32,000 bases of DNA from Nitrososphaerota archaeon (lineage in GTDB: Archaea; Thermoproteota; Nitrososphaeria; Nitrososphaerales; UBA57): assembly GCA_016871995.1 (NCBI GenBank), contig VHBL01000003.1, positions 1 to 32,000 on the forward strand, in the 5' to 3' direction. Below are positions 8,663 through 26,632 of this stretch, one piece after another. The notes below the pieces were generated by a model. It was not told the origin of the DNA. It did no database searches and saw nothing but the letters and a program-made list of their open reading frames with translations. The stretch's first letter is position 1. Every line of letters begins with the position of its first letter. Position numbers and translations under genes: made by a program.

Positions 8663-10362
8663 AGAAAGCATTATTAATATTGGCGCTCTTGCTAATTCCT
8701 CTACTTCCTCTCCAATTGGCTGAAGGTGCCAACCCACCTTTCAAGTTCAAAGTTGGGTACTCTGCTGAGAAGATGTTCGATGCTACCACAGGCGTTCCTG
8801 TTTTTATCGCGGGAGAGACCATTTGGATTTATCCCGGAGAGCCGATAATAGTAAGCATTTCCAGGCCAGATGGGCGACCTGCAGCCGCTGTACCATTGGG
8901 TGAGCATCCATACCCCCTGTACACTTTCAAGGACACAGATATACTTGGGACATGGCTTTTAAGAATAGAATCCAGAGCCGGGCAATTCACCTTTCCAGTA
9001 GAATTTGTTCAGCAGTCCATAAAGCCTGATGGACACGAAGCAAAGTTCTCACTAGAAGAAGATTCGCTAGGAATAAAAGGCATAATTAGCTTCAGCCCAC
9101 CAGAAATTCCCTCATCAACGGAAGTCATACTTGTCAGAAAGAGCAGAAATGAGTCATTGGTAAATATTGCTACCAACGTAACGATAGGAGGTTCGCAGGT
9201 AGTTCTTCAGATAACCAAGGGAGAAGGAGCTGTTACTACATTGAGAGTCTCTCCTTATGCTCCCATAGGAGGAGTTGATTACGAGGCTGATGTTGCAAAT
9301 GGACCCGTGTTTACTACATGGGCCGACATAATCATGGAGATTCCTCTTACAAAGAGGACAGGTCGCTCGCTGATAGTAACCTACGTAGACGATGCGATAG
9401 CAAGAACTCCTAAGGTAGCTACACAGCTACCCGGTCAACCAGAGAATACTCTAGCTCTGAGAATCTCTCCAAGGGGAACAGCCGAAGATTCCGCAACGGT
9501 GCCTACAAAATATGGAAGGGCTACATTAAACGTATACATGCAACAGGGAGCTACGATAAATATCGTCAAGATTCCACTAGTGATACTACCGGGCAGGGTG
9601 GTCATACAACCTGCAGCGACATCTTCTGCAGCACCATTTGCACAACCTCTTCCATATGAATTCCTTGACCCTCTTGGCGACCTTTCTGCTTATGACATAA
9701 TATTGGCTACCAAGATAAACGGTCTTGACAATGTTTGGAGCACTAGTATAACTCCTCCTCTAGCTTCTCTTAAAGTTACAAACACTATAGGCGGAGAAGC
9801 AGTTTCTAACTATGACGTAAATTTCACATCTGGCGTTATTCAGAAGACAAAGGTTGGTGAGACAACATTCGTCCTACTACGGGAAAGAAGAGTTACAACA
9901 TCTTACAACCTTGCTATTGATGGAATTCTTCAAAAGGAAGGTGAATTCCAGCCTGCAACAGTAACGCTTTCACAGCTCTCGGAGGTTTCGGTATTTGCCA
10001 GCCAGGGAAAAGTCCAATTTACTATCATGGGAAGCTTAGGCATACCTGCACCAGCAGGCAACATCACAGTATACAAAGTAACGGGAAACTCGTTTGCCGT
10101 AGTAAAGGAACTCATCTGGCCTGGCGGGGGTTCTGTTAGTACAACTCTTCCCCAAGGAACTTACAGGGCCACCGCTAAAGTTCTGGAAATCCAGCAGTCT
10201 AAAGATTTTGAAGTCAAACAGCCCATCACTTCGGTAGACATCCAGATGCAAAACCTATTCACTAGAGATGAGTTTAACTTGGTTGGCGCCTCTTTGGTGA
10301 TAATGTCTTCAGAGATTGTGTTTGCGATACTGGTCTGGAGAAGAGCACTAAGGTCTAAGTAG
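8659..10362 (+). CDS. Large exported protein with signal peptide and a C-terminal TM anchor plus basic tail
   Basis: Signal MKKALLILALLLIPLLPLQLAEGA. Beta-rich body (TLPQGTYRATAKV). C-terminus is DEFNLVGASLVIMSSEIVFAILVWRRALRSK. Confidence 0.75.
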   Translation: MKKALLILALLLIPLLPLQLAEGANPPFKFKVGYSAEKMFDATTGVPVFIAGETIWIYPGEPIIVSISRPDGRPAAAVPLGEHPYPLYTFKDTDILGTWLLRIESRAGQFTFPVEFVQQSIKPDGHEAKFSLEEDSLGIKGIISFSPPEIPSSTEVILVRKSRNESLVNIATNVTIGGSQVVLQITKGEGAVTTLRVSPYAPIGGVDYEADVANGPVFTTWADIIMEIPLTKRTGRSLIVTYVDDAIARTPKVATQLPGQPENTLALRISPRGTAEDSATVPTKYGRATLNVYMQQGATINIVKIPLVILPGRVVIQPAATSSAAPFAQPLPYEFLDPLGDLSAYDIILATKINGLDNVWSTSITPPLASLKVTNTIGGEAVSNYDVNFTSGVIQKTKVGETTFVLLRERRVTTSYNLAIDGILQKEGEFQPATVTLSQLSEVSVFASQGKVQFTIMGSLGIPAPAGNITVYKVTGNSFAVVKELIWPGGGSVSTTLPQGTYRATAKVLEIQQSKDFEVKQPITSVDIQMQNLFTRDEFNLVGASLVIMSSEIVFAILVWRRALRSK

Positions 10363-15494: not shown

Positions 15495-18215
15495 TTGGCA
15501 TTGAGGAAACTGCTCGTTGGATGGCTTCTGGTAATTCTCCTGCTCCCAATAGTAGCGACCAGCATAAACGCGCAGCAGCAATCAGATCCGACAAGAACCT
15601 ATGACGAAGTTCTGAGCTTGAACGTAGTCAGCAATGTTGGACTGTGGAAGATTAAAGAAGTAGGAGTCAACGTTTCATCTCTGAAAGTTTCTGCTGCTGA
15701 AAACATAGCAAACGTGCAGGAATATGAGCTTCTATTCACAAAACATTCCGAATACGACTCAAGGGTTGAATTCTTTAAGTCTTACGGCTACAATGTTCTA
15801 GGTTTTGACATTCTTCCCCAGCAGGGCGCGGTACTGCGGGTTAACACTCCATCGTTGGAAGCTGCTAGGCAAGTCGCCACAGTGTTAGAGAATACCTTCA
15901 GGTTGAGCTTCATCCTCATAAGGAGCACCGGGAACAACCATCTTTTCTATTCCGGCGCTGAACTGGGAAGACCTCAGGATCAAAAGTTCTTGCCGATAAA
16001 CCTCTGGAACCTGTTTACTGGAAGAGGTGGATTCGATAGGTTGGTGACTATGGACACCTTCCAGATCAACCCAGTGCCGATGCTTGCATTATACGGAAAA
16101 CGAGAAACATCAGGCTTCACTTATACCATCTGGGTTGGAGGAATAACTGCTGACGCAACGGCCAATTCAGCCATAAGGTACGACAACTTCTTCCAGTTCA
16201 TACAGACAGGAGGAATAAATGCTTCAAGAACGGCAAAGACATCCACGATAGAGTTCAAGACCTTTGGTCAGTTGGTAACACCTCAAGATAAATACGATTT
16301 TGCCCATGTCCCAGATGTTAGAGGGAGCACAGCAGTCTCTCTGATGTCGCCGAATGAGAATAGGTCGAGGTTCAATTTCGACTACAAAAGGACTCCAGGC
16401 AATCTTGTTGTCACTAGGTCTGTCGACAAGACAGCAGCTGTCGCTGGGGAGACTCTGGAATACAGGATAAGGTTTGAGAACACAGGGCCTGTAGGGCCTA
16501 CGGCTGGCGGCACATCAATAGATTTCGTAAATGCGAGAGAAACATGGTTGCAACAACACTTTGATGTCGTACGTGCAGAGTCGAACTTTACAATAAGGAA
16601 CCTCGAACCAGGTACATCAAAGACCTTCGTCTATATCTTGCGTGCAAGGACCACATCTGAAGCTGTAGCATCCACGAGCCAAACGGATAGCACCTTCAAC
16701 TTCAACTACACTGTTGCTAACAGGAAGTTCACTTCGACCGTAATGGCAAACGATATGAACATAGTTCTGAACAGAGGGGCAGCGGCCCTAGTGGCCGAAG
16801 CCTCTGTAACAGAGTATTACCCTACGACACCGGGGAACTCAAGCCTTGTCCTGCTGATAAGAAATGGAGGAACGCGAACTGCATTTAATGTAAGAGCGTT
16901 CTTGGGCGACAATCTGATAACTACTGTGCCTTCAGTCGCACCGGATCCAGTCAGGCCAGAGAGAGTTACAACCCCAATACCTTTCGACAACTTCGCTCTT
17001 AAGAAGCGCGACCTGTTCTGGAGGATAGAGTGGACTGATGACAACAGAGTCCAATCAGTAAGGTCAAACACGATACCTATCTTTGAAAACTATACTTCCA
17101 CGGCAGTGCCCAAGCTGTCTGTGGAAAAGACTTCGGTGCAGAACAAGACAAAGGGCGACGGGATATATGAAACTAAAATTACCATAAGGAATGGCGGCAA
17201 GACGCCTACTGGAGCATTCGAAATACTGGACTTTCCTCCAAAGGGAACGACATTTTCATCTGGAGACTTCTCGCCTTCTGGGCAAGGAGTTTCTACGATA
17301 ATAGACAACATACTGCCAAATTCCAGCAAGACGGTATCCTATCTTAGCAGGGGACTATCGAAGATCAACATAATCACTGGTCCTGCATTTCTCAGGTTCA
17401 AGATAGGAGAGCAGACTTCGGAAGTACTTACCAAGTCTATAGTAAGTGCTGATGCTGTAGTACTTGAAAAGACTACTAACACGCAGAAGGGCTTCATAGG
17501 CTACAACTTTACCGCAAATATCAGCCTCAAGAACGAGGGCGTGGAAAGCATCTACAACGTTGCGATAGACGGTAGGGATTCTCCGCTAAGAGTCGTCAAG
17601 GGAGACAATGTTGCGGCAAACGAAACTCTGGCTCCTGGCCAATCCGTCAACCTGCAGTACAGCCTCCAAACATTCAGAGGACAGAACGCTTCCCAAATTG
17701 GTGCCTATGCAAGGTTCACTCTTGCAGGTGCCATACTGGAAACTGCTACGAAAGCCATCCCTATAGAAGTGTACAACGCGCCTCAAGTTAGGATAAGGCT
17801 CTCAGAGCCCGGCATATTGGATAACAGGCCTTACACCGTACTCCTTGAGATTGAGAACCCTGCCCCTATCTCGATAAATTCACTTTCAATTGTGCCTAAC
17901 GTTATTGAAAACTTCAGAATCAGTGGAGGAGACCTAGGTGCTCAAGTTTCAAGGCAGATGGCTCCGGGAGAGAAGATTACGGTGTCAGCAACAGGAATGA
18001 GCACTCAGCCCAACAAGCCGATGCGCTTTGCTCCAAAGATAACCCATGTTTACGAAGGTCAGACCGTGAACGTGCCAATCGCGGAGCTCAATGTAGTCGT
18101 TGGCGAGGATGTCATGGCAAGGTTTTCGCTGCCAGTAGGAGCTGGGATTGCGATAGTTCTAGTGACATGGATACTTGTCAGAAGAGCTGTGCAGAAACCA
18201 GAGGAAAAAGATTAG
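15495..18215 (+). CDS. 906-aa exported surface protein with repeated CARDB/DUF11-like Ig-fold modules and a C-terminal TM anchor
   Basis: Signal LLVGWLLVILLLPIVATSINA. Repeated segments such as VDKTAAVAGETLEYRIRFENTG, VEKTSVQ...YETKITIRNGG and LEKTTN...FTANISLKNEG. I count 13 N-x-S/T sequons. C-terminus is FSLPVGAGIAIVLVTWILVRRAVQKPEEKD. TTG start. Confidence 0.8.
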   Translation: MALRKLLVGWLLVILLLPIVATSINAQQQSDPTRTYDEVLSLNVVSNVGLWKIKEVGVNVSSLKVSAAENIANVQEYELLFTKHSEYDSRVEFFKSYGYNVLGFDILPQQGAVLRVNTPSLEAARQVATVLENTFRLSFILIRSTGNNHLFYSGAELGRPQDQKFLPINLWNLFTGRGGFDRLVTMDTFQINPVPMLALYGKRETSGFTYTIWVGGITADATANSAIRYDNFFQFIQTGGINASRTAKTSTIEFKTFGQLVTPQDKYDFAHVPDVRGSTAVSLMSPNENRSRFNFDYKRTPGNLVVTRSVDKTAAVAGETLEYRIRFENTGPVGPTAGGTSIDFVNARETWLQQHFDVVRAESNFTIRNLEPGTSKTFVYILRARTTSEAVASTSQTDSTFNFNYTVANRKFTSTVMANDMNIVLNRGAAALVAEASVTEYYPTTPGNSSLVLLIRNGGTRTAFNVRAFLGDNLITTVPSVAPDPVRPERVTTPIPFDNFALKKRDLFWRIEWTDDNRVQSVRSNTIPIFENYTSTAVPKLSVEKTSVQNKTKGDGIYETKITIRNGGKTPTGAFEILDFPPKGTTFSSGDFSPSGQGVSTIIDNILPNSSKTVSYLSRGLSKINIITGPAFLRFKIGEQTSEVLTKSIVSADAVVLEKTTNTQKGFIGYNFTANISLKNEGVESIYNVAIDGRDSPLRVVKGDNVAANETLAPGQSVNLQYSLQTFRGQNASQIGAYARFTLAGAILETATKAIPIEVYNAPQVRIRLSEPGILDNRPYTVLLEIENPAPISINSLSIVPNVIENFRISGGDLGAQVSRQMAPGEKITVSATGMSTQPNKPMRFAPKITHVYEGQTVNVPIAELNVVVGEDVMARFSLPVGAGIAIVLVTWILVRRAVQKPEEKD

Positions 18216-19288
18216 CGCTCCCTTTTGCCCTCTACGAATTCGATGAACCTTCTCTTCGCCTCTTCGTAGGGTAGTTGTTGAGGGGGATGCTTGAAGCAGT
18301 ATGAGGAGACACTGGTCAGCGATCCTGAAACGCCTCTCTCCAGCCCCAATGCTGTTCCTCTAATTGCGTCTATCATTATACCTGCACTGTTGTAAGCATC
18401 CACGACATGCAGTTTCAAGTCTATAGTTAGGGGGATGTTTCCGAAATACCTCCCTTTGAGGTAGACGTAGCATATCTTGTCGTTGTCGAGGAAGTTGACG
18501 TAATCGCTAGGGCCTATTCTTGTTGGGACATCGTACGGAGCCATAGCCCTTACTGCACTTGTCTTACTCTCCCTCTTATCAACTAGCCTGCTCTCTTCGA
18601 GCATGTTCAAAAAGTCCGTATCCCCTCCAAGGTTCAACTGGTAGGTTTCATCGACCTTCACTCCCCTATCCACGCAGAGCTTTACGATAGTTTTGTGCAG
18701 AACTGTTGCGCCGAGCTGGCTCATCACATCATCCCCTGCAACTGGCAGGGAAGCCTTGGAGAACTTCTGCTCCCACTCCTCGTTGGAAGCGATGAATACG
18801 GGCATAGCGTTGACGAATGCAGCCTTTGCTGCTATAGCCTGTGCAGCATAGAACCTTGTCGCTTCCCCGCTGCCTACTGGAAGATAATTTACTACAATGT
18901 CGGCTTGAGCGTCAGAAATAGTGTCAGAAACTTCTGTAGGTTCAACTTTATCGAGGGGGACGACATCTTTAAGATACTTTCCTATGCCGTCAAGTATCTT
19001 TCCCTTCTTCACCTTTACGCCCAGCCTTGGCACATCCGTTATTTTGATTGTATTGTTGGGCTTCTCGAAGATCGCTTCAGAAATGTCTTTGCCAACTTTC
19101 TTTGCATTCACATCAAAGGCTGCAACAAATTCTATGTCTCCCGGTTCATAGCCTCCAAGCGAATAACTTGTCAAGCCAATGGAATCTTCTTCGCCCCTAA
19201 TCTTGTAGTATTCGGCGCCTTGAACCAAGGCTGAGGCGCAATTGCCTACCCCTACCAGAACAACCCTAATCTTTCGCAAAGCTGACAC
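18212..19288 (-). CDS. ino1: myo-Inositol-1-phosphate (inositol-3-phosphate) synthase, GTG start
   Basis: IRVVLVGVGNCASALVQGAEYY N-terminus and LNLGGDTDFLNML, as in prokaryotic Ino1-type MIPS. Confidence 0.92.
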   Translation of the reverse strand: MSALRKIRVVLVGVGNCASALVQGAEYYKIRGEEDSIGLTSYSLGGYEPGDIEFVAAFDVNAKKVGKDISEAIFEKPNNTIKITDVPRLGVKVKKGKILDGIGKYLKDVVPLDKVEPTEVSDTISDAQADIVVNYLPVGSGEATRFYAAQAIAAKAAFVNAMPVFIASNEEWEQKFSKASLPVAGDDVMSQLGATVLHKTIVKLCVDRGVKVDETYQLNLGGDTDFLNMLEESRLVDKRESKTSAVRAMAPYDVPTRIGPSDYVNFLDNDKICYVYLKGRYFGNIPLTIDLKLHVVDAYNSAGIMIDAIRGTALGLERGVSGSLTSVSSYCFKHPPQQLPYEEAKRRFIEFVEGKRER

Positions 19289-19301: not shown

Positions 19302-19318
19302 ATTCATAATAACCTTTC
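19302..19318. repeat. Left copy of a perfect 17-bp direct repeat (attcataataacctttc) bounding the GC-rich island; candidate attL/target-site duplication
   Basis: Identical 17-mer at 25784-25800. Its reverse complement (ttattatgaat) supplies the TATA-like element ~10-25 nt upstream of the ino1 GTG. Confidence 0.7.
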
Positions 19319-19326
19319 TGAAAGGT
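19312..19326. repeat. Perfect 7-1-7 palindrome acctttc-t-gaaaggt straddling the left repeat/island junction
   Basis: Read directly from the sequence. Absent from the right junction (acctttc-ctactgc). Confidence 0.6.
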
Positions 19327-19341
19327 AAACTTAATTGGGTC

Positions 19342-19365
19342 AGGTTGACTTGCCCAACCTACCCT
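19342..19365. repeat. Copy 1 of an imperfect 24-bp direct repeat (aggttgacttgcccaacctaccct)
   Basis: 22/24 identical to 19512-19535. Can fold as a ttggg/cccaa hairpin. Confidence 0.55.
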
Positions 19366-19511
19366 CCCCCATCTTTTTGACAACTTGGCGGGCCCGAAGG
19401 GTCTTGACCCAGAAAGTGAGTCAACTAGCCTATTGGAGGAGGGCGTCAGACCTCCTTCCCAATTTTAAGTCATCTTTTGATGAGTTGCGGTTGGTTTTAA
19501 CTCAATAGGCT

Positions 19512-19535
19512 AGGTTGACCTGCCCAGCCTACCCT
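19512..19535. repeat. Copy 2 of the imperfect 24-bp direct repeat (aggttgacctgcccagcctaccct)
   Basis: 170 bp from copy 1. Can fold as an aggct/agcct hairpin. An inverted partial copy, gtcaactagcct, lies at 19420-19431. Confidence 0.55.
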
Positions 19536-19658
19536 TCAACACATTCTTAACAAATAGCGTGTCCGATACAAGAACGCTTTGCTTCAGACGGTGTGAATAG
19601 AACGAAGACTTGCCAATTACTAGGACGATGAAAGGTGATCCTTTAGCTCGGAGATGAA

Positions 19659-20201
19659 TTAATCATGGCTATGATGTGGCACGACGGGCATCTGGCAACA
19701 CCAAAACTCTCGCAGCGGGGCCTGCATTCTTGCCATAATATCGACTCCTCCTGCGTCGAATCCTACCGAATTATTTCCCTCTACAAGGAACAGCGAAATC
19801 TCACTTGAACGCTTGGGTCTTGAAATATCATCGGAGTGATCTAACACGGTGTACAGTTACTTCAATCCGTTCTTGAGCGAATTCCAGAGAGGCCAGAGTG
19901 GTAGGCATCTAGGGTCAACTCCGGGTGAGACAAGACCACCAATGTTGAGGAACATGACTAGATCGTCTTCGAGGACAGGATCGTGAAGCCCGTCGAGTAT
20001 CTTTCTGAAACTGATTTCTTTCTCCGCGTACTTACCGCTTGGTCCCCCAACCAAAAGCCCACGAAGGAGCGCTGTCCGGCGATCTACAACATGACAGATG
20101 TCATCTGGATGTGTGCCAGGATTGTCTAGCTGCACGAGGCGCCGCTGAAATGAAGCCCGACCGAAGTCCGCAGAATCGGCCATCAGTGGAGAAAGAGTCA
20201 T
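19659..20201 (-). pseudogene. Cyclase/kynurenine-formamidase-family gene (PF04199-like) interrupted by an in-frame TAA; probably decayed
   Basis: ORFs 20201-19857 and 19847-19659 share one frame and are separated only by a TAA (19859-19857) plus 3 codons. NPGTHPDDICH resembles the HxGTHxDxPxH metal motif, with the first His and the Pro lost. VGFDAGGVD resembles the distal G.D..S.D block. The N-terminal region is short. Confidence 0.45.
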
Positions 20202-20227
20202 TAGGTCTATCGAGCCACTCCGGGCTT

Positions 20228-21055
20228 GTGGACGACGGCGACCTGCGGGAGCTACTGACCAAGTTCGGACTCACCCTGTCCGAAGCGGATGTCTTCATCA
20301 CCCTCGCGCAGCTCAGGAAATCGGGAGGCGGATGGGTAAGCGGAGCCGAGCTGGCAGAGCTGGCCGGGAAGCCCCGCGTAAGGGTATACCAGATAATTCA
20401 GGCCTTGGTTGGGCTCGGCCTCGTCCAGGCCAGCTTCGGGAGGCCCAAGGAGTATTCGGCGGAGCCGCCCCAGGTCGCGATGAGGAAGCTGGTCGCGGCT
20501 CAGGAGAGTAAGCTCAACGAACTGGCCCACCTCGAACAGCCGGCCGTCGAGGAGCTCCTGAGGCTGCCTCCCCTGGAGGATGGTCAAGGGGCCGGGAGGA
20601 GGTCGAGGATGTCGTTCAACATCGTTCAAGGGATTCCGAACATCCAAACCGCGATAAAGAGCGTCCTCAGATGCGAGGGTGCCTCCGTCGTGGTCAACAG
20701 GCAGTCCGTCGACCAGCTTGTCCCGACGCTGGGGTACCTGAAGGATGGACCGAGGTCGTTACGGCTCCTCGTCACGGGCGGGGCGGCCATGCCCAAATAC
20801 GCGCGCAGGATAGGAAGGAAGGGCAGGCAAGTCGAGGTGAGGCGTCTCGCAGAGGAGATGCCGACGACGGTGCTCACGGAGATGACGTTCGTGCTCCTAC
20901 TCTACTCTGTCGAGAGCTACAGGCCGAAACCCCTATCTCGGCCAAGGGACAGGTCCACTGCCTCGTACTGCGTCTCGGTGTCGGACGATTCTTACCTGAA
21001 GCAGGCGGGGTGCCTCTTCCAGTCGCTCTGGCGCTCAGCCGGGGGAGCATCTTAA
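20228..21055 (+). CDS. TrmB-family transcriptional regulator (wHTH plus C-terminal domain); GTG 20228 proposed as start, ATG 20150 possible
   Basis: LLTKFGLTLSEADVFITLAQL...SGAELAELAGKPRVRVYQIIQALVGLGLVQASFGRPKEYSAEPP, followed by the coiled segment LVAAQESKLNEL, is the TrmB N-terminal pattern. The 5' part of track ORF 20039 overlaps the divergent gene. Confidence 0.8.
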   Translation: MDDGDLRELLTKFGLTLSEADVFITLAQLRKSGGGWVSGAELAELAGKPRVRVYQIIQALVGLGLVQASFGRPKEYSAEPPQVAMRKLVAAQESKLNELAHLEQPAVEELLRLPPLEDGQGAGRRSRMSFNIVQGIPNIQTAIKSVLRCEGASVVVNRQSVDQLVPTLGYLKDGPRSLRLLVTGGAAMPKYARRIGRKGRQVEVRRLAEEMPTTVLTEMTFVLLLYSVESYRPKPLSRPRDRSTASYCVSVSDDSYLKQAGCLFQSLWRSAGGAS

Positions 21056-21090
21056 AGGCAGGTGTGCCGAATACTGATGGAACTGAGCCC

Positions 21091-21783
21091 ATGCCCAAGC
21101 TTTATGGAGTATATCTCGACCTCTATCTGAGGGCCGTGTTGGACAAGGACAAGGCGGAGGCATTCTCCGTCATCAACGGCTTCCTCAAGATGAATTCAGA
21201 TCCGGCGAAGGCATTCGGGATGATTGCCGCCGCCCAGACGGAGGTGGGCGACCTCTGGGCTAGCAACGCGATCAGCGTGGGCGACGAGCATTTCGCGACC
21301 GAGGTTGCGCTGGAGGCGATAACGGTGATAGCGAGCCAGTTCAGGCCGGCGAGGAGGGACGGCGCAAGGACCGCTCTCGTCGTAGGAGGAGTCGAGGGCG
21401 AGTTCCACCACGTCGGGGCGAGGATGTTCGCCGCATCGCTGGAGATCGAGGGCTGGCGGGTGGACTTCCTGACGAATCTGTCGACGAAGCATCTCTTGGA
21501 TTACGCAAAGGGGCGCAAGGGGAAGATAGACCTGGTTTCGCTGGGAGTGAGCCTCAGGCTGAACCTGCCCGCGCTCGAAACGGCCCTCGCCGATCTCCGC
21601 AGGCTGCCTGAACTCAGGGAGACAGTGATAATCGTGGGAGGGAGCATCTTCAGGGACCCGAGGCTGAAGAGGCGCCTCATAAAAGCGAAGGGGCACGGCG
21701 CGCTGGCGAACTGCGTCTGCACGACACTCGACGAAGGCATGAAGGCTGCCATGCGCCTCACGGCAGGCAGGCTGGCAGTGTGA
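21091..21783 (+). CDS. Stand-alone cobalamin-binding protein (B12-binding_2 helical bundle plus Rossmann B12 domain), CarH/LitR-sensor-like but lacking a DNA-binding domain
   Basis: W56-x9-E66-H67 (DLWASNAISVGDEHF; tgg at 21256, gag-cat at 21286-21291). E104-F-H106-H-V-G109 (ExHxxG; His codon at 21406-21408). An S/L-rich segment about 41 residues later and IIVGGSIF. ATG 21091, or GTG 21064, lies 8-35 nt after the TrmB stop. Confidence 0.85.
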   Translation: MPKLYGVYLDLYLRAVLDKDKAEAFSVINGFLKMNSDPAKAFGMIAAAQTEVGDLWASNAISVGDEHFATEVALEAITVIASQFRPARRDGARTALVVGGVEGEFHHVGARMFAASLEIEGWRVDFLTNLSTKHLLDYAKGRKGKIDLVSLGVSLRLNLPALETALADLRRLPELRETVIIVGGSIFRDPRLKRRLIKAKGHGALANCVCTTLDEGMKAAMRLTAGRLAV

Positions 21784-21828
21784 TTCGGGAAGAAAAGGTA
21801 TTTGGTCTGGCCGGGAGCACGCCCATCC

Positions 21829-22309
21829 ATGCAGCAGCTGCCATACCTATTCGCGGAGGGCCTCGCCTTGGGCCTTCTGTCGACAGCGGTAATGACACTC
21901 TTCGAGCTGCCGGCCTGGAGGAGGTGGGGGTATACGGGGAGTCCTCGAGTGGCATGAGAACGAGGAGATCTGCGCGAAGCTTGGAGGGAGGGGAGGCGGG
22001 ACCAACTATGCGGGGGTCTTCGGGCTGCACTTCATCAACGGCGGAATAGCGGGAGGATCTTTCCCGGTTATCAGGCAGACCTTCCCGATATTCGGGTCCT
22101 TGCCGCTGCCTCATTACGGCCTCCTCTTCGGCGCCACCCTCTGGATTCTCAAGCTTCTTCCCATCCACAGGCCTATAACGGGTCTCAGCGTATGGAGGCA
22201 CCCTCTGGGACGCGGTCCCGCGCTGGTGAGCATCGCAGGACATTTGATCTATGACTTGACCATGGCCTTGCTCGGCACGCTCTTGTACTGGCCGAATGTT
22301 AGTTTGTAA
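21829..22309 (+). pseudogene. Small (~160 aa) 4-TM membrane protein split by a +1 frameshift at a G5 run
   Basis: Frame 1 reads MQQLPYLFAEGLALGLLSTAVMTLFELPAWRRWG... and stops at 21955-21957. Frame 2 is open from 21896 and continues ...GIRGVLEWHENEEICAKL...LPHYGLLFGATLWIL...WPNVSL* (end matches track ORF 22100-22309). Removing one G from ggggg (21926-21930) fuses them. Confidence 0.5.
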
Positions 22310-22363
22310 GTTTCTATGCGAAATTACAATCTGGTCATAAGGCGTGCGTTTCTTACCTTAGCC

Positions 22364-22810
22364 ATGCAAAAAACCATAACTAAAGACATCATCGACACCG
22401 CGGCGGACGCGGGGTCGTTCAAGACGCTGGTTGAGGCCTTGAAGGCAGCCAACCTCGTAGAGACACTGAAGGGGAGAGGCCCGTTCACCGTCTTCGCGCC
22501 GACTGACGAGGCATTCGCGAAGCTTCCGAAGGGAACGGTCGAGGGGCTCCTCAAAGACATACCGAAGCTGACGGCGATCCTGACCTATCATGTTCTGCAG
22601 AACAGGGTCTCAGCGAAGGAGGTTCTCGCCATGACCTCGGGAGGCAAGACTCCAGCGGTCGAGACGGTACAAGGGAGCACGGTTACCCTCCGGTCGAGGG
22701 GAATACTCTCAAAGATCGTGTACGTGAACGACGCGAAAGTCGTGAAACTTGATGTGGAGGCCAGCAACGGCATCATTCACGTCATAGACAATGTGATCCT
22801 GCCTCCTTAA
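22364..22810 (+). CDS. Fasciclin (FAS1) domain protein (track ORF starts at 22316; Met17 at 22364 is more likely)
   Basis: [48 protein letters not shown]...LTYHVL...[13 protein letters not shown] matches the FAS1 H1/YH/H2 blocks. No obvious signal peptide. Confidence 0.85.
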
Positions 22811-22967
22811 GGCAGGGGCCTTTTTTTCTTGGTGATGTTGCTTGGGACATACCGTCCCACGGGTCAAGAGCTCTTCTTTTTCTGGTCGGTGGCAGGAGAC
22901 CTGGAGCCGGGGTGGAGGTGCTCTGAATTATTTCTCGCTGGAAGGAATGCCAGACAGCAAGGATGGC

Positions 22968-24014
22968 ATGCATCTTATGAAGGCGCTAATCGCGGGCGTA
23001 GTCGCAAGTGTCGCCTTTGCGTCTGCATTTTCTCCTTTCGCCCTCGGCCATGCACCGCTAGGTGCGGGAGACAACGAGGCCCTTGGCGACGCCACCCTGA
23101 TTCCCAACGCTGAGAAGTCATGGGCAGTCTATGCAGAGCTTCACGAAGCAGGGGAGGCCCAGTACTACAAGTTCGACGTGACCTCGGGCCAGAGGCTCTA
23201 TCTGATGCTCTATGCCTCCCCTGGCGATGCAGACGCCGGTTTCCTTCCACACATGGCCTTGATGGCGCCGGGAATCGACGATGAAGGTTCGCTACCCAAA
23301 TATGTCATTCTGCCGGAAGGCTACGGGTACAGGACTGTTCCAAGCAAGCGGGCCGAGAAGCCGAGCTACGAGGCCTTCGCGCCGGGCAGCTTCTACTCCC
23401 TCTCCGAGTTGCGCTTCGAGGCGGGGCAGGGCGGGACGTATTATGTGGTCGTGTTCGAAGAGAAAATGGGAGGTCGCTACGGGCTGGCCGTAGGCGAGCA
23501 GGAATCATTTACGATTGAGGAATACCTACTCATTCCGTTCAGCACGCTGAATGTCTACCTTTGGTCGGGGCAGAGCCCAATACAAGTCATCGCCCCGATG
23601 GCCGCGGTAGTTGCAATAGGGATTGTGACGCTCTATCTAGCTCAAGTAAGGACAGCTGTCACCCGTTCTGCGGGATCCGCGCTTGCATATGTCGCAGGCC
23701 TGATATTCGTGGGGAGCGCGGCCGTGAAGATCTACGTTATGCTCGTCGCCCTCAGCTGGACCGGATTGGTAGGCGATGCCATGCTAACCGTGACATTCGT
23801 CTTGGCGCCGCTCGGGATAGGAGCGTATGCCATGAAGTACAGCCTCGGCGGCAGACATCGGAGCCAGAGGGTTAAGATGGTCATCTTCGCTCTCCTTGGG
23901 TTGATATCGTGGGGAGGTTTCCTCGTCGGTCCGGCCATAGCCGTCGCTGCCGCCATAACCCCGAGTTCGGGCGGCCAGCAGCGGACCTCACTGCATCGAG
24001 AGCAGTCAGGCTGA
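22968..24014 (+). CDS. Membrane protein: signal peptide, ~210-aa exported beta domain and ~5 C-terminal TM helices
   Basis: From Met43 of the track ORF: MHLMKALIAGVVASVAFASAFSPFALG|HAPLG..., then a PPC-like segment (AQYYKFDVTSGQRLYLMLY...GGTYYVVVFE..GGRYGLAVG), then hydrophobic helices to the end. Confidence 0.7.
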   Translation: MHLMKALIAGVVASVAFASAFSPFALGHAPLGAGDNEALGDATLIPNAEKSWAVYAELHEAGEAQYYKFDVTSGQRLYLMLYASPGDADAGFLPHMALMAPGIDDEGSLPKYVILPEGYGYRTVPSKRAEKPSYEAFAPGSFYSLSELRFEAGQGGTYYVVVFEEKMGGRYGLAVGEQESFTIEEYLLIPFSTLNVYLWSGQSPIQVIAPMAAVVAIGIVTLYLAQVRTAVTRSAGSALAYVAGLIFVGSAAVKIYVMLVALSWTGLVGDAMLTVTFVLAPLGIGAYAMKYSLGGRHRSQRVKMVIFALLGLISWGGFLVGPAIAVAAAITPSSGGQQRTSLHREQSG

Positions 24015-24055
24015 ATGCTCGGTGAAAGGAAGATGTTGCGGTCGCTGACATAAGC

Positions 24056-25345
24056 ATGAAAGGAATGACGACTATTCTGGTCACGGGGGCAAACGGCTTC
24101 GTAGGTCGGAGGCTAGTCACAAAGCTGCTCTCGGACGGCAAGTACAAGGTAAGGTGCCTGATCAGGCATCCTGACGTCGGTGCTGAGCTTGGAGATGTCG
24201 AAAGGGTCGTGGGGAACGCGAACGACTACGAGAGTCTCATGCGTGCTCTGACCGGCATCGATGTGGCATTCTACCTGATTCATTCTATGGAGGGCTCATC
24301 ATCAAATTGGGAGCGGTTCGAAGAACGAGACCGAACGATGGCGCGGAACTTCGCGAAAGCCTCGACGAGCTGCGGGGTCAAGAGGATCATCTATCTCGGT
24401 GGCCTTGCATCAGGAGACGAATCGGCTCTCTCGAGGCATATGAGGAGCCGGCGGGAAGTGGGAGAGATCCTTCGGACTTCAGCCGCCGCCGTGACTATCT
24501 TTCGCGCGGCGGTGATATTGGGGGGAGGAAGCGCTTCATTCGAGATGATGTCCCAGCTTGTCGAAAGGCTGCCGTTCATGGTACTCCCGAGGTGGGTAAC
24601 GAGCAAACTCCAGCCAATCGCGATAGAGGACGTCGTGACCTATCTAGCGGAGTCGGTAGGAAACGAGCTGACATCCGGTAGGGATTTTGACATCGGCGGT
24701 CCAGACATTTTAACATACCGTCAGATGATGGAGCGCTACGCGAGCAGGACCCACAAGAGGTTCCGCCCACTGATGCTTCCGTTCCTGACGCTCAACCTCT
24801 CATCCTACTGGGTCGACCTGGTCACGGACGTCAACGCGTCACTTGCAAGGCCGTTGGTGGAGAGCCTCAGCAAGGACGCGGTGGTAGCAGATGATTCGAT
24901 AAAGCGCGTAATGCCCTTCAGGCTCGCATCCTACGAGGAATCAATAGACGCCGCCCTGCGCGAAAGGAAGCCGAGGGAGAACTCCAGAAAGTCGAGGGAC
25001 ATCACTCCGCTCTTGCTCGTCCTGGCCGCCTTGGGCTTGACGACGCTCGTAGCCGGTTCGCTTCCTGAACTGCTCGGTTCACTGTGGACCGGGCTGGTAT
25101 TGCTTTGGCTCGTCGGCATTGGATATTCGCTCTTCTTCTTGCGTTTCGGAGCCCGGATGGGAGCACTTTCGGCTGGAGTCGTCGCCTGGCTCGCGCTAGC
25201 TTTCTGGATGCTCGACGCGGCGGTGGCGGTTCAGATGGCCGTTTCAGAATCAGGTTCGGCCATCGCGAGGGACATCGTCGGAATCGTCCTGGCAGCGGCA
25301 ACTGTGCTTCTGTCCCACTTTAGCTTTCATGAGAGAAGGGAGTGA
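24056..25345 (+). CDS. NAD(P)-binding atypical SDR/NmrA-like domain fused to a ~4-TM C-terminal domain
   Basis: ILVTGANGFVGRRLVTKLL (GxxGxxG Rossmann) plus an epimerase-like body. The last ~110 aa are hydrophobic (LLLVLAALGLTTLVAG..., VLLWLVGIGYSLFFL...). Confidence 0.85.
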   Translation: MKGMTTILVTGANGFVGRRLVTKLLSDGKYKVRCLIRHPDVGAELGDVERVVGNANDYESLMRALTGIDVAFYLIHSMEGSSSNWERFEERDRTMARNFAKASTSCGVKRIIYLGGLASGDESALSRHMRSRREVGEILRTSAAAVTIFRAAVILGGGSASFEMMSQLVERLPFMVLPRWVTSKLQPIAIEDVVTYLAESVGNELTSGRDFDIGGPDILTYRQMMERYASRTHKRFRPLMLPFLTLNLSSYWVDLVTDVNASLARPLVESLSKDAVVADDSIKRVMPFRLASYEESIDAALRERKPRENSRKSRDITPLLLVLAALGLTTLVAGSLPELLGSLWTGLVLLWLVGIGYSLFFLRFGARMGALSAGVVAWLALAFWMLDAAVAVQMAVSESGSAIARDIVGIVLAAATVLLSHFSFHERRE

Positions 25346-25510
25346 GGTCTTGCCATGGGCGGGTTGCCGGGGTTCGGTCAGGGTGCGAAATCCTGTATCT
25401 GTCGAGCACAGAGTTGTTGACTGATCGGAAGAATAGTTGGCTACTGCAAACCTCGTCCCGACGTCTGAAAGGGCACCTGTTATAGCCGTCTGGGAGATTC
25501 AAGATGGCCA

Positions 25511-25699
25511 TTAAAACGGAGCGAAGATTCCCACGAAGGCAATATAGGGGAGCATCGTCTTGGCAACGATGCTGAGGATGATGTAATATCTCTTGACGTA
25601 CAGATAATCCCTCCGGCGGCCGACTCCCCCGTCTTGCAGTACCGTGTTCACAGCGAATTTGTTGAAGAGGACCAAGTAATCGATAAAGTCCTCGAGGGG
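25511..25699 (-). pseudogene. Possible 3' remnant of a truncated membrane-protein gene in the island's right arm
   Basis: My translation of an open frame with no plausible start: PLEDFIDYLVLFNKFAVNTVLQDGGVGRRRDYLYVKRYYIILSIVAKTMLPYIAFVGIFAPF*. It is preceded directly by a TAA. It looks more protein-like than the 129-aa track ORF in the same region. Confidence 0.25.
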
Positions 25700-25783
25700 T
25701 TAGTTCCAAACTGAGAGGTCAATTCTCAAGGCTTTAGGAATGTCTGAAGGATAAAAAAATAAGTTTACATTTGTCTAAACTTA

Positions 25784-25800
25784 ATTCATAATAACCTTTC
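25784..25800. repeat. Right copy of the perfect 17-bp direct repeat (attcataataacctttc); candidate attR
   Basis: Identical to 19302-19318. cataataa lies ~25-33 nt upstream of the ATG at 25820, and ggaggg lies 3 nt upstream of it. Confidence 0.7.
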
Positions 25801-25819: not shown

Positions 25820-26632
25820 ATGTCAGAATACAGAAGCACTATTGAAAAAGCATTCAGGAAACTCTATGCAGAGTTTTCAAGTGTCAGAAGCGATTCTAAA
25901 ATTGCCAGTATTGTTGGAAGGGGTGCATCTGGAGACATAACGCATGTAATAGACGCCATGGCTGAAAAGATACTCATCGAATCCTTCAGAAAAGAAATGC
26001 CTGATTGTACAATAGTTTCCGAAGAAATCGGCATCGTCAAAGGAAAGAACGATGCTCCAATTGTACTGATGGATCCAATAGATGGTAGCACCAACGCCGT
26101 TAGGGGCCTTCCCGTATTCTGCGCTACCGCAGGAATTCTTGAAGATAGAAGTTTCGGTAGCATGGAGGCTTCTGGCACAATCGACCTTGTCACCGGCGAA
26201 GTTATTGTCGGAGATGAAGATGGTACGTATGTAAATGGAACAAAGGCAACTCTTAGCAAAGTTTCCAGACTGCAGGATGCCATAGTTTCGTACGAAGTCA
26301 AGGTCAGAGTCGAGAGACCGAAAAAGATGATCAGCAAGATGTACGAGCTCATCACCAAGACAAAGTATCCCCGGGTTCTTGGCTCTGCAGCCTTGGAGAT
26401 TGCTTATGTTGCAATAGGGAGGATGGATGCATATGTCGCACCGGGGAACCAGCTCAGAAGCTACGACTGCCTTCCATCGATATTCTTGGTAAAGTCTGCA
26501 GGCGGCTTCGTTGAAGGGATTGGCCAAAACACTGATTCCGTAGATGTCATGTCAAGGGAGAGAGTTTCTTTTGTCGTTGCAGGAAACAGGACTCTCGGGA
26601 AGATTCTCGCTAAAGAGTTTTCATCGCTATAG
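25820..26632 (+). CDS. suhB: Inositol monophosphatase/FBPase-family phosphatase
   Basis: IVSEEIG (metal-binding EE), LMDPIDGSTNA (DPIDGT motif) and the C-terminal ...YDCLPSIFLVKSAGG (WD.AAG-like) block. Confidence 0.88.
   Translation: MSEYRSTIEKAFRKLYAEFSSVRSDSKIASIVGRGASGDITHVIDAMAEKILIESFRKEMPDCTIVSEEIGIVKGKNDAPIVLMDPIDGSTNAVRGLPVFCATAGILEDRSFGSMEASGTIDLVTGEVIVGDEDGTYVNGTKATLSKVSRLQDAIVSYEVKVRVERPKKMISKMYELITKTKYPRVLGSAALEIAYVAIGRMDAYVAPGNQLRSYDCLPSIFLVKSAGGFVEGIGQNTDSVDVMSRERVSFVVAGNRTLGKILAKEFSSL

Follow-up and report, generated by a model that had tools for sequence, protein, structure and literature searches.

The DNA analyzed here (the window) is a stretch of 32,000 nt of VHBL01000003.1, a contig of an uncultured Nitrososphaerota archaeon (a thaumarchaeon) of Lake Tanganyika, and forms part of a 118-kb ENA metagenome contig. 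It carries a gene for myo-inositol-1-phosphate synthase (ino1) and, divergently oriented, a gene of the inositol monophosphatase (IMPase) family, and the two are separated by an island of about 6.5 kb (Table 1). The island is bordered by two copies of an exact 17-mer, ATTCATAATAACCTTTC, both on the forward strand, the left one 13 nt upstream of the ino1 GTG and the right one 19 nt upstream of the IMPase ATG. No further copy is found in the window even with two mismatches permitted, and the repeat was recovered in 0 of 100 dinucleotide-preserving shuffles. In silico deletion of 19319-25800 leaves 30 + 19 = 49 bp between the two start codons. An earlier note on this DNA, made from the letters alone, had reported perfect 17-bp direct repeats and a divergent pair that would lie about 49 bp apart after removal of the insert; the repeats proved exact and unique in the window, and the coordinates and Pfam domains of the pair agree with that description.

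The foreign part of the island is its inner 5.5 kb only, and both end segments are host-like. The core (19851-25380) has a mean GC content of 58.6% (55 to 63% per 500-bp window), while the flanks have 45.6% and 44.7%. GC content at third codon positions (GC3) is 0.68 to 0.78 in the five cargo genes versus 0.46 to 0.58 in seven host genes, and the tetranucleotide distance to the host profile is 0.40 to 0.64 inside the island and 0.17 to 0.25 outside. The outer segments are not GC-rich: the A-end, next to ino1, spans 532 bp at 47.4%, and the B-end, next to the IMPase gene, 403 bp at 46.7%. The GC-rich core noted earlier is thus borne out by strong deviation in GC, GC3, and tetranucleotide usage, but the range of 62 to 68% then given for it is too high. 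A search for repeats at the boundaries of the cargo returned one shared 10-mer, which is at chance level.

Table 1. Features of the island and its flanking genes (window positions).
Feature	Position	Strand	Remarks
ino1, myo-inositol-1-phosphate synthase, left flank	18212..19288	-	GTG start; PF01658, E 2e-28; homologues 64-94% identical in 80 Nitrososphaerota loci
Left 17-bp direct repeat, attL-like	19302..19318	+	Together with ATAGAAT on the ino1 side, intact 24-nt promoter core
A-end, non-coding backbone	19319..19850	.	Host-like GC, 47.4%; first ~60 bp and both hairpins homologous to L004 insert
Inner inverted box GAAAGGTAAACTTA	19320..19333	+	1-2 nt from left repeat; identical in A-end of L004 insert
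Hairpin module 1	19332..19384	+	GGGTCAGGTTG-ACTTGCC-CAACCTACCC, then C-rich tract and T-run; covariance model R1, 67 bits
Hairpin module 2, degenerate	19502..19554	+	No T-run; covariance model R1, 58 bits
GC-rich foreign cargo	19851..25380	+	58.6% GC; defined by composition
TrmB-family helix-turn-helix regulator, near-orphan	20150..21055	+	PF01978, E 3e-11
B12-binding-domain protein	21010..21783	+	PF02607, PF02310; 46-nt overlap with TrmB gene; weak matches to CarH and corrinoid-protein models
Single-domain fasciclin protein	22364..22810	+	PF02469, E 6e-38
Membrane protein	22947..24014	+	Gene call; PF04151 match below threshold
NmrA/YbjT-type NAD(P)-binding protein	24056..25345	+	PF13460, PF05368; hydrophobic C-terminus
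B-end backbone	25381..25783	.	Host-like GC, 46.7%; last 116 bp (25670-25785) 82% identical to other end of L004 insert
Inner inverted box CAAATGTAAACTTA	25760..25773	-	Spacer TAAGTTTAGAC (25773-25783, last base common with box) to right repeat
Right 17-bp direct repeat, attR-like	25784..25800	+	19 nt upstream of IMPase ATG
IMPase family gene, right flank	25820..26632	+	ATG start; PF00459, E 2e-28

The arrangement is reproduced across independent data. An identical IMPase is encoded on 15 contigs and an identical NmrA-like protein on 13, drawn from ENA, JGI, and Logan assemblies of several Lake Tanganyika libraries, and all contigs examined are colinear with the window at 99.93 to 100% identity. 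A 522-kb contig likewise holds the identical cargo proteins. Other libraries and pipelines supply contigs that cross both junctions, which the earlier note had singled out for checking, with 100% or 99.99% identity (a JGI contig of 50 kb, Logan contigs of 35 and 50 kb, and the ENA contig of 118 kb). Two of the JGI samples belong to a Lake Tanganyika depth-profile study (PMC8245535). An assembly chimera, in which the contig of a GC-rich organism was joined to a thaumarchaeal contig at a short common repeat, might be suspected in a window derived from a metagenome assembly, and one Logan assembly does break at 25337-25363. However, the identity of both junctions in contigs of 35 to 118 kb from JGI, Logan, and ENA leads us to reject it, with a probability that we regard as negligible. 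No empty allele was seen among the contigs of this population, so the insert appears to be fixed.

Relatives were surveyed by a scan for ino1 with one genome per species, which yielded 80 loci, overwhelmingly from metagenome-assembled genomes of Nitrososphaerota/Thaumarchaeota. The three closest loci by ino1 identity, from groundwater and other assembled genomes, are L004 (94%), L005 (92%), and L006 (90%). The empty site that the earlier note had proposed to look for is present in two of them: IMPase and ino1 adjoin each other divergently in L005 and L006, with gaps of 52 and 66 bp, respectively, and one copy of the 17-mer each. Within these gaps a core of 24/25 nt, (G)GAAAGGTTATTATGAATAT(A/G)GAAT, is conserved, while the DNA on either side of it is not. 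The window insert lies inside this 24/25-nt core, of which 17 nt are duplicated, one copy on each side. At least nine more distant Nitrososphaerota also have the compact pair or adjacent genes without an insert. The empty sites in close relatives, together with the compact arrangement in distant ones, indicate that the compact promoter is ancestral and that the island is an insertion, which bears out the interpretation of the earlier note. We are close to certain that foreign DNA was inserted at this ancestral compact site.

The third relative, L004, contains a different insert at the same nucleotide position. Its IMPase and ino1 genes are 2.65 kb apart, and the insert (L004 7390-9981) carries unrelated, AT-rich cargo composed of a DUF433/DUF5615 toxin-antitoxin pair and small open reading frames (ORFs). 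The ends of the two inserts are nevertheless homologous: identity amounts to 86% over about 57 bp that include the box AAAGGTAAACTTA and a hairpin, to 85% for the second hairpin, and to 82% over a 116-bp block that ends in the inverted box. The interior is flipped relative to the flanks, so that the hairpin end adjoins ino1 in the window and the IMPase gene in L004. Since the end segments resemble the host in composition and recur in a different insert, the 17-bp repeat is the scar of the integration of an element and not necessarily of the arrival of the GC-rich genes. The backbone ends belong to the recipient clade. No other copy of the insert ends occurs in the window.

The distribution of occupied and empty sites bears on the number of events. 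L004 and L005 are the closest pair by pairwise identity, and a four-taxon test on ino1 and IMPase (1875 sites), with L006, the most divergent, as the fourth taxon, grouped them in 950 of 1000 bootstraps, the informative sites being split 55/32/30. Occupied L004 therefore stands beside empty L005, with the occupied lineage of the window outside, which implies either two insertions or one insertion followed by a precise loss. Either history points to site-specific recombination and not to an accident. The converse scenario, in which the block is ancestral and the relatives lost it by deletion between the repeats, draws on the fact that a precise deletion between 17-bp repeats would recreate the empty site, and one such loss, in L005, is indeed among the two histories that the four-taxon test allows. 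Against it stand the outgroup L006 and the distant Nitrososphaerota without insert, and a cargo GC3 that is far from that of the host and shows no drift toward it; we consider this scenario highly improbable.

A constant plan underlies both junctions in both lineages. On the IMPase side the repeat is followed by an 11-nt spacer (TAAGYYTARAC) and a box, and on the ino1 side a box is followed by 0 to 2 nt and the repeat; this asymmetry is kept whatever the orientation of the interior. The boxes, AAAGGTAAACTTA and AAATGTAAACTTA, are imperfect inverted copies of each other, 13 to 14 nt long, and occur near both ends of both elements. In the window they lie 1 to 2 nt and 11 nt from the repeats, and inverted repeats of equal or better quality were found elsewhere in the same window search. 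The window repeats are identical at 17 of 17 positions, and those of L004 at 13 of 18 (GGAAAGGTTATTATGAAT versus GAAAAGACTTAATATGAAT).

The hairpin module extends the comparison beyond this locus. Its motif, AGGTTGAMYTRCCCRRCCTAC, has two occurrences in the window, each in the left end of the island, and two more in the L004 insert; it is absent from the other 80 thaumarchaeal loci. One metagenome scan returned 12 matches, of which nine are true copies, located in contigs of 42 to 47% GC and sharing the extended consensus GGGTTAGGTTGACTTGCCCRACCTACCCTTCCCCTATTTTTGA. Twelve copies were folded, and in all of them a conserved loop of 7 nt closes a stem of about 10 bp, which gives a hairpin of about 28 nt. 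The stem changes are all one-sided and wobble-compatible on one strand, with no compensatory double changes. In three pairs of contigs that are 98% identical, homology stops at or near the module: at its 5′ edge (L088/L096), at the T-run (L092/L098), or 45 nt beyond (L089/L093). A TAAG box and a variant form of the inner box lie ahead of several copies. A search of 1.17 Mb of related thaumarchaeal DNA with a covariance model detected no additional copies, and the idea that the hairpin is a general host terminator was rejected on this ground. Rfam gave nothing at gathering threshold in the window and nothing at E <= 1 in the left end of the island and the L004 insert. From these patterns the module appears to be the hallmark of a small family of variable insertions, and the insert is likely a member of a mobile family with conserved ends.

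The breakpoints themselves lie at L088 681-846, L096 715-847, L089 4587-4684 (compared with L093), and L092 1690-1810 (compared with L097 and L098). In L088, two copies of the module are inverted, about 60 to 70 bp apart, with TATATAA between them, and in L092, L097, and L098 the module is located about 30 to 40 bp upstream of the start of rpS8e.

The recurrence of the module also bears on another account of the locus, a one-off illegitimate insertion in which foreign DNA was captured at a break and the 17-bp repeat arose by fill-in of staggered ends. Such an event would suit a block that contains no mobility gene and whose cargo consists of ordinary cellular-type genes. It leaves unexplained the different insert of L004 at the same nucleotide with homologous end modules, the host-like backbone ends, and the presence of the module at other loci, and we consider it very unlikely.

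No integrase, transposase, Cas1, or PolB was found in the island ORFs, the L004 insert, or the window ORFs scanned. ARAGORN detected no tRNA or tmRNA in the 32-kb window. These results accord with the earlier reading of the locus, which had seen no tRNA target and no tyrosine or serine recombinase gene. Hallmark genes of mobile genetic elements (replication, capsid, and conjugation) are likewise missing, the Pfam and NCBIfam matches being limited to the TrmB-like helix-turn-helix, B12-binding, fasciclin, and NmrA/SDR families. Integrase remnants were sought with Pfam at E <= 5 in the minus-strand ORF at 19659-20201, the B-end reading frame, and orf161, a minus-strand ORF in the cargo, and nothing was returned. 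A split SSV-type integrase across the reconstructed junction was rejected by inspection, as all frames contain stops.

On balance, we somewhat favor the view that a site-specific mobile element, either non-autonomous or decayed and lacking a recombinase gene, is integrated at 19319-25783. The mechanism is a separate matter, and we put forward recombination of the attachment-site (att) type, as opposed to chemistry that duplicates the target site, with a confidence slightly short of even. Conservative site-specific recombination would have taken place between the 17-bp core of the element (attP) and the promoter (attB), with a recombinase supplied in trans or since lost. The interior would later have been inverted through recombination between the two inner inverted boxes, and the GC-rich genes would have entered the backbone before or after integration, for example by exchange via the conserved end modules. 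Three observations favor the att type. An intergenic insertion with a repeat of 17 bp matches the pattern typical of the integrated elements of Thaumarchaeota, in which att sites are about 8 to 26 bp long with a median of 17 bp, 15 of 68 are intergenic, and the median element size is 17 kb (PMC6563490). The asymmetric junction plan is kept in both lineages, which is unexpected for the equivalent termini of a transposon. The degenerate repeat of L004 is expected if attP and attB were partly identical. As regards a Xer-exploiting integrative element (IMEX), which would integrate at the chromosomal dif site by means of host Xer, the core is, by eye, only weakly palindromic.

Several points weigh against this interpretation. 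The recombinase is hypothetical, given that neither element nor the scanned window ORFs encode an integrase. The opposite orientations of the interior are not predicted by a single tyrosine-recombinase att core, and an extra inversion is needed. The two L004 repeats match at only 13 of 18 positions, and the species tree is based on the same two genes that flank the site. The identity of the end modules (82 to 86%) against that of the flanks (80 to 81%) would also fit one ancient, immobile insertion. Finally, the module with the hairpin and TAAG box is found beside unrelated flanks, upstream of rpS8e and beside trkH, with no common adjacent core, and a loosely targeted transposon fits this better than an integrase with a single attB.

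The last point leads to an alternative in which the repeat is a target-site duplication (TSD) left by staggered cuts, the insert being a non-autonomous cassette bounded by inverted repeats (a mobile insertion cassette or mini-casposon) that was pasted by a transposase or family-1 casposase encoded elsewhere. Mobile insertion cassettes carry passenger genes between conserved ends, lack a transposase, and occur in either orientation, as the island does. The imperfect inverted boxes near both ends of both elements, the two interior orientations, natural for symmetric ends, and the same-family modules beside unrelated flanks at other loci all suit this alternative. No cognate insertion sequence with matching ends was identified, however, and the island differs from such cassettes in its lack of clean terminal inverted repeats (TIRs) and in the length of its 17-bp repeat. 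The locus can also be parsed with an 8-bp duplication, ATTCATAA, and ends of 24 nt that agree at 71%, but the ino1-side end is then identical to target DNA over its outer half.

A family-1 casposase is one candidate enzyme for such pasting. The family-1 casposon of Ca. N. koreensis AR1 has an experimentally defined 13-bp TSD with its target at the 3′ end of ef-2, and its casposase accepts DNA without TIRs, up to about 4 kb long, for integration in vitro, with an apparent repeat (22 bp) that likewise exceeds the true TSD (PMC8464041). The island resembles the family-1 casposons of Nitrosopumilus in its host phylum, site-specific insertion, duplicated target, apparent repeat of more than 13 bp, and inverted sequences near the ends. 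The first 13 nt of its repeat, ATTCATAATAACC followed by TTTC, match the casposon TSD, ATTGATAAAGAGT followed by TTT, at 8 of 13 positions, including A1, T3, A11, and the ATAA ruler at positions 5 to 8. This match is weak evidence in AT-rich promoter DNA, and the island differs in that its repeat is 17 bp long, its leader is TAT and not TTT, and T13 is not conserved. Unlike family-1 casposons, it has neither casposase nor PolB and its target is a promoter, and mobilization of non-casposon DNA by the casposase has been shown in vitro and not in vivo. The absence of any Cas1, PolB, or transposase among the genes found, the subterminal boxes at unequal distances (11 nt versus 0 to 2 nt) with the asymmetry conserved in both lineages, the inverted repeats of equal or better quality elsewhere in the window, and the different repeat lengths (17 perfect versus 13 of 18) all count against a TSD. 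We regard it as a serious alternative, although a rather unlikely one.

In a further alternative, the 53-nt modules would be recombination sites at which segments are swapped in integron-like fashion by a recombinase not encoded here, and the 17-bp repeat would stem from an older platform. Each insert, in the window and in L004, has two directly repeated modules with non-homologous DNA between and after them; the breakpoints in the three contig pairs lie at the module or 45 nt beyond it; it is absent from 1.17 Mb of other thaumarchaeal DNA; and the stem changes are all wobble-compatible on one strand. Integron cassettes similarly present variable segments and direct, hairpin-forming sites at a fixed location, and their attC sites are at least 55 nt long with an R''/L''/L'/R' architecture. 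Archaeal integrons were reportedly described in 2022. Unlike integrons, the island has no IntI-like gene, and its hairpin is conserved in sequence and not in structure only. The stem of about 10 bp, in about 28 nt, is far shorter than attC and lacks the R''-L''...L'-R' layout, and the hairpin was rejected as an integron attC on size and layout, the matches to GTTRRRY/RYYYAAC being wrongly ordered and lost in variant copies. In addition, compensatory double changes are missing, the boundaries of the GC-rich block carry no repeat, known copies number about a dozen, and a conserved terminator at the ends of the elements would account for the same data. Swapping at the modules is an improbable explanation, more so than a TSD.

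Similarly speculative is the broader proposal that the two inserts, together with the nine copies from metagenomes, belong to a thaumarchaeal family of cassettes that lack a recombinase and have not been described before. Its hallmarks would be the TAAG box, the inverted box, and the 53-nt hairpin with T-run, and an enzyme acting in trans, either a family-1 casposase working on non-casposon DNA or a hairpin-recognizing recombinase, would insert its members, flip them, and load them with new cargo at promoter cores. If true, this would be a natural gene-capture platform in Nitrososphaerota.

The position of the insert suggests how the two flanking genes could have remained functional. The duplicated 17-mer bears the TATA-like CATAATAA/TTATTATG, by which each gene would keep a proximal promoter. 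The ino1 side has the full 24-nt core, and the IMPase side has 17 nt of it with a leader of its own that contains GGAGGG. The probable retention of a proximal promoter by both genes would account for the tolerance and fixation of the insertion. Transcripts that run into the island in the former IMPase direction may be stopped by the first hairpin and its T-run, which start about 20 nt inward of the ino1-side repeat.

The five cargo genes are encoded on the forward strand. The TrmB-like regulator is a near-orphan, with a single homologue at 37% identity in a search of 5.8 billion proteins besides a shorter, 100%-identical call of the same protein. The best homologues of the fasciclin protein are 71 to 72% identical, one of them named Nitrososphaerales, and the best one adjoins a TrmB gene in a contig of 66% GC. 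By inspection, the membrane protein starts with a signal-like segment at its N-terminus, continues with an ectodomain that is weakly PPC-like, and closes with transmembrane helices at its C-terminus. The best homologues of the NmrA-like protein are 45 to 56% identical, and every organism-named match is thaumarchaeal (Thaumarchaeota, Nitrososphaeraceae, Nitrosopumilales, Nitrosopolaris, and Thermoproteota). The contigs read for relatives of the fasciclin and NmrA-like proteins have 55 to 66% GC, and one of the better NmrA-like relatives lies in a 64%-GC contig (L107) that is archaeal by its uS10. No near-identical donor was found in the collections searched. Viral contigs that were scanned yielded no match to the hairpin motif, the A-end, the B-end, or the empty-site core, and a BLAST search with the whole island gave nothing in phage records and generic fasciclin-domain similarity only in plasmid records. 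The homologues point to a GC-rich archaeal lineage, probably one of the Nitrososphaerales, as the most likely source of the cargo.

Two groups of homologues have informative neighborhoods. In L106 3-6084 (ENA ERZ27251359, 55% GC), a ParB-family gene is found with a three-repeat fasciclin gene, an NmrA-like gene (54% identical), and a B12-binding gene, and this related gene set may reside on a plasmid-like element. In the archaeal contigs L107 (10001-11608), L108, and L109 (64% GC), the closest NmrA-like homologues lie directly upstream of a pyrimidine-dimer-glycosylase-like gene (PF03013; MSMEG_6728 family). The pairing of the TrmB-like regulator with a B12-binding protein and this neighborhood hint that the cargo may be a light- or damage-responsive envelope module.

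An island left by a site-specific element is of a kind that is well known, including in Thaumarchaeota. Like the elements described by Krupovic et al. in 2019 (PMC6563490), it combines short direct repeats, an intergenic target, recognition by comparison with an empty site, cellular-type cargo, and a site re-used by unrelated cargo. Cryptic integrated elements (CIE) are defined by their integrase (PMC6563490), and the island misses that definition only for want of one. It also has no replication gene or other mobile-element hallmark and is 6.5 kb long, compared with the median of 17 kb, and the inverted boxes and the repeated hairpin module at its ends are not described for those elements (PMC6563490). 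With tRNA-targeting genomic islands it shares the deviant composition of the cargo, the direct repeats at the borders, and the empty site in relatives; it differs from them in that neither border has a tRNA and the target is a bidirectional promoter. It goes beyond the routine in four respects: the insert entered the core of a bidirectional promoter, the site has a second occupant whose interior is flipped, foreign cargo is enclosed by host-like ends, and a recurrent hairpin module is found where synteny breaks.

To our knowledge, mobile elements of uncultured freshwater Nitrososphaerota have seldom been dissected so far. This case joins an occupied site, an empty site, and a second occupant, with foreign genes placed in a housekeeping bidirectional promoter and, probably, neither promoter destroyed. 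The local backbone and the foreign cargo are separable, so the cargo may have arrived at a time other than that recorded by the repeat. The end module can be searched for in complete genomes, which provides a handle on the missing recombinase and a test for a dedicated gene-capture site. A TrmB-like and B12-binding regulator pair and envelope proteins located between two inositol genes also call for caution in inferring operons or regulons from synteny.

Other observations concern the joints, the target, and the edges of the window. The joint between cargo and B-end coincides with a contig break in the Logan assembly of SRR16108672: one contig stops at 25363 and its successor begins at 25337, an overlap of 27 nt, and a branch of the assembly graph at this point could reflect heterogeneity of the population. 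At the opposite boundary between backbone and cargo, on the minus strand at 19659-20201, ORFs of 114 and 62 amino acids in the same frame are split by a single stop; neither matches a Pfam family, and together they may represent a pseudogene. The 580-bp gap between the B12-binding and fasciclin genes (21784-22363) has orf161 as its sole ORF, a doubtful minus-strand call with no family match and with a third-position GC not above that of the first and second codon positions. In the L004 insert, the DUF433 and DUF5615 (PIN-like, Mut7-C) genes at 8961-9553 form a typical toxin-antitoxin addiction module. The left repeat/element junction (19310-19327) contains a perfect 7-bp palindrome, ACCTTTC-T-GAAAGGT, and AAAGGT recurs in the repeat and the ino1-side inner box (AAATGT in the IMPase-side box), where it may be a protein-binding half-site. 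Several assemblies have contigs (L110 to L112) that end 362 to 406 bp upstream of the DEAD-box helicase gene near the window start (1-362), which suggests a repeat or variable region just beyond it. In the distant Nitrosopumilales L034, L040, and L053 (~9960-10000), the native ino1 promoter, AAACTTAAAT(T/G)ATGAATAC, resembles the junction between element end and target in the window, AAACTTAAT followed by TCATAAT, with the 7-mer TTATGAA/TTCATAA inverted. The resemblance may be due to chance in AT-rich DNA, or the core of the element may derive from such a promoter.

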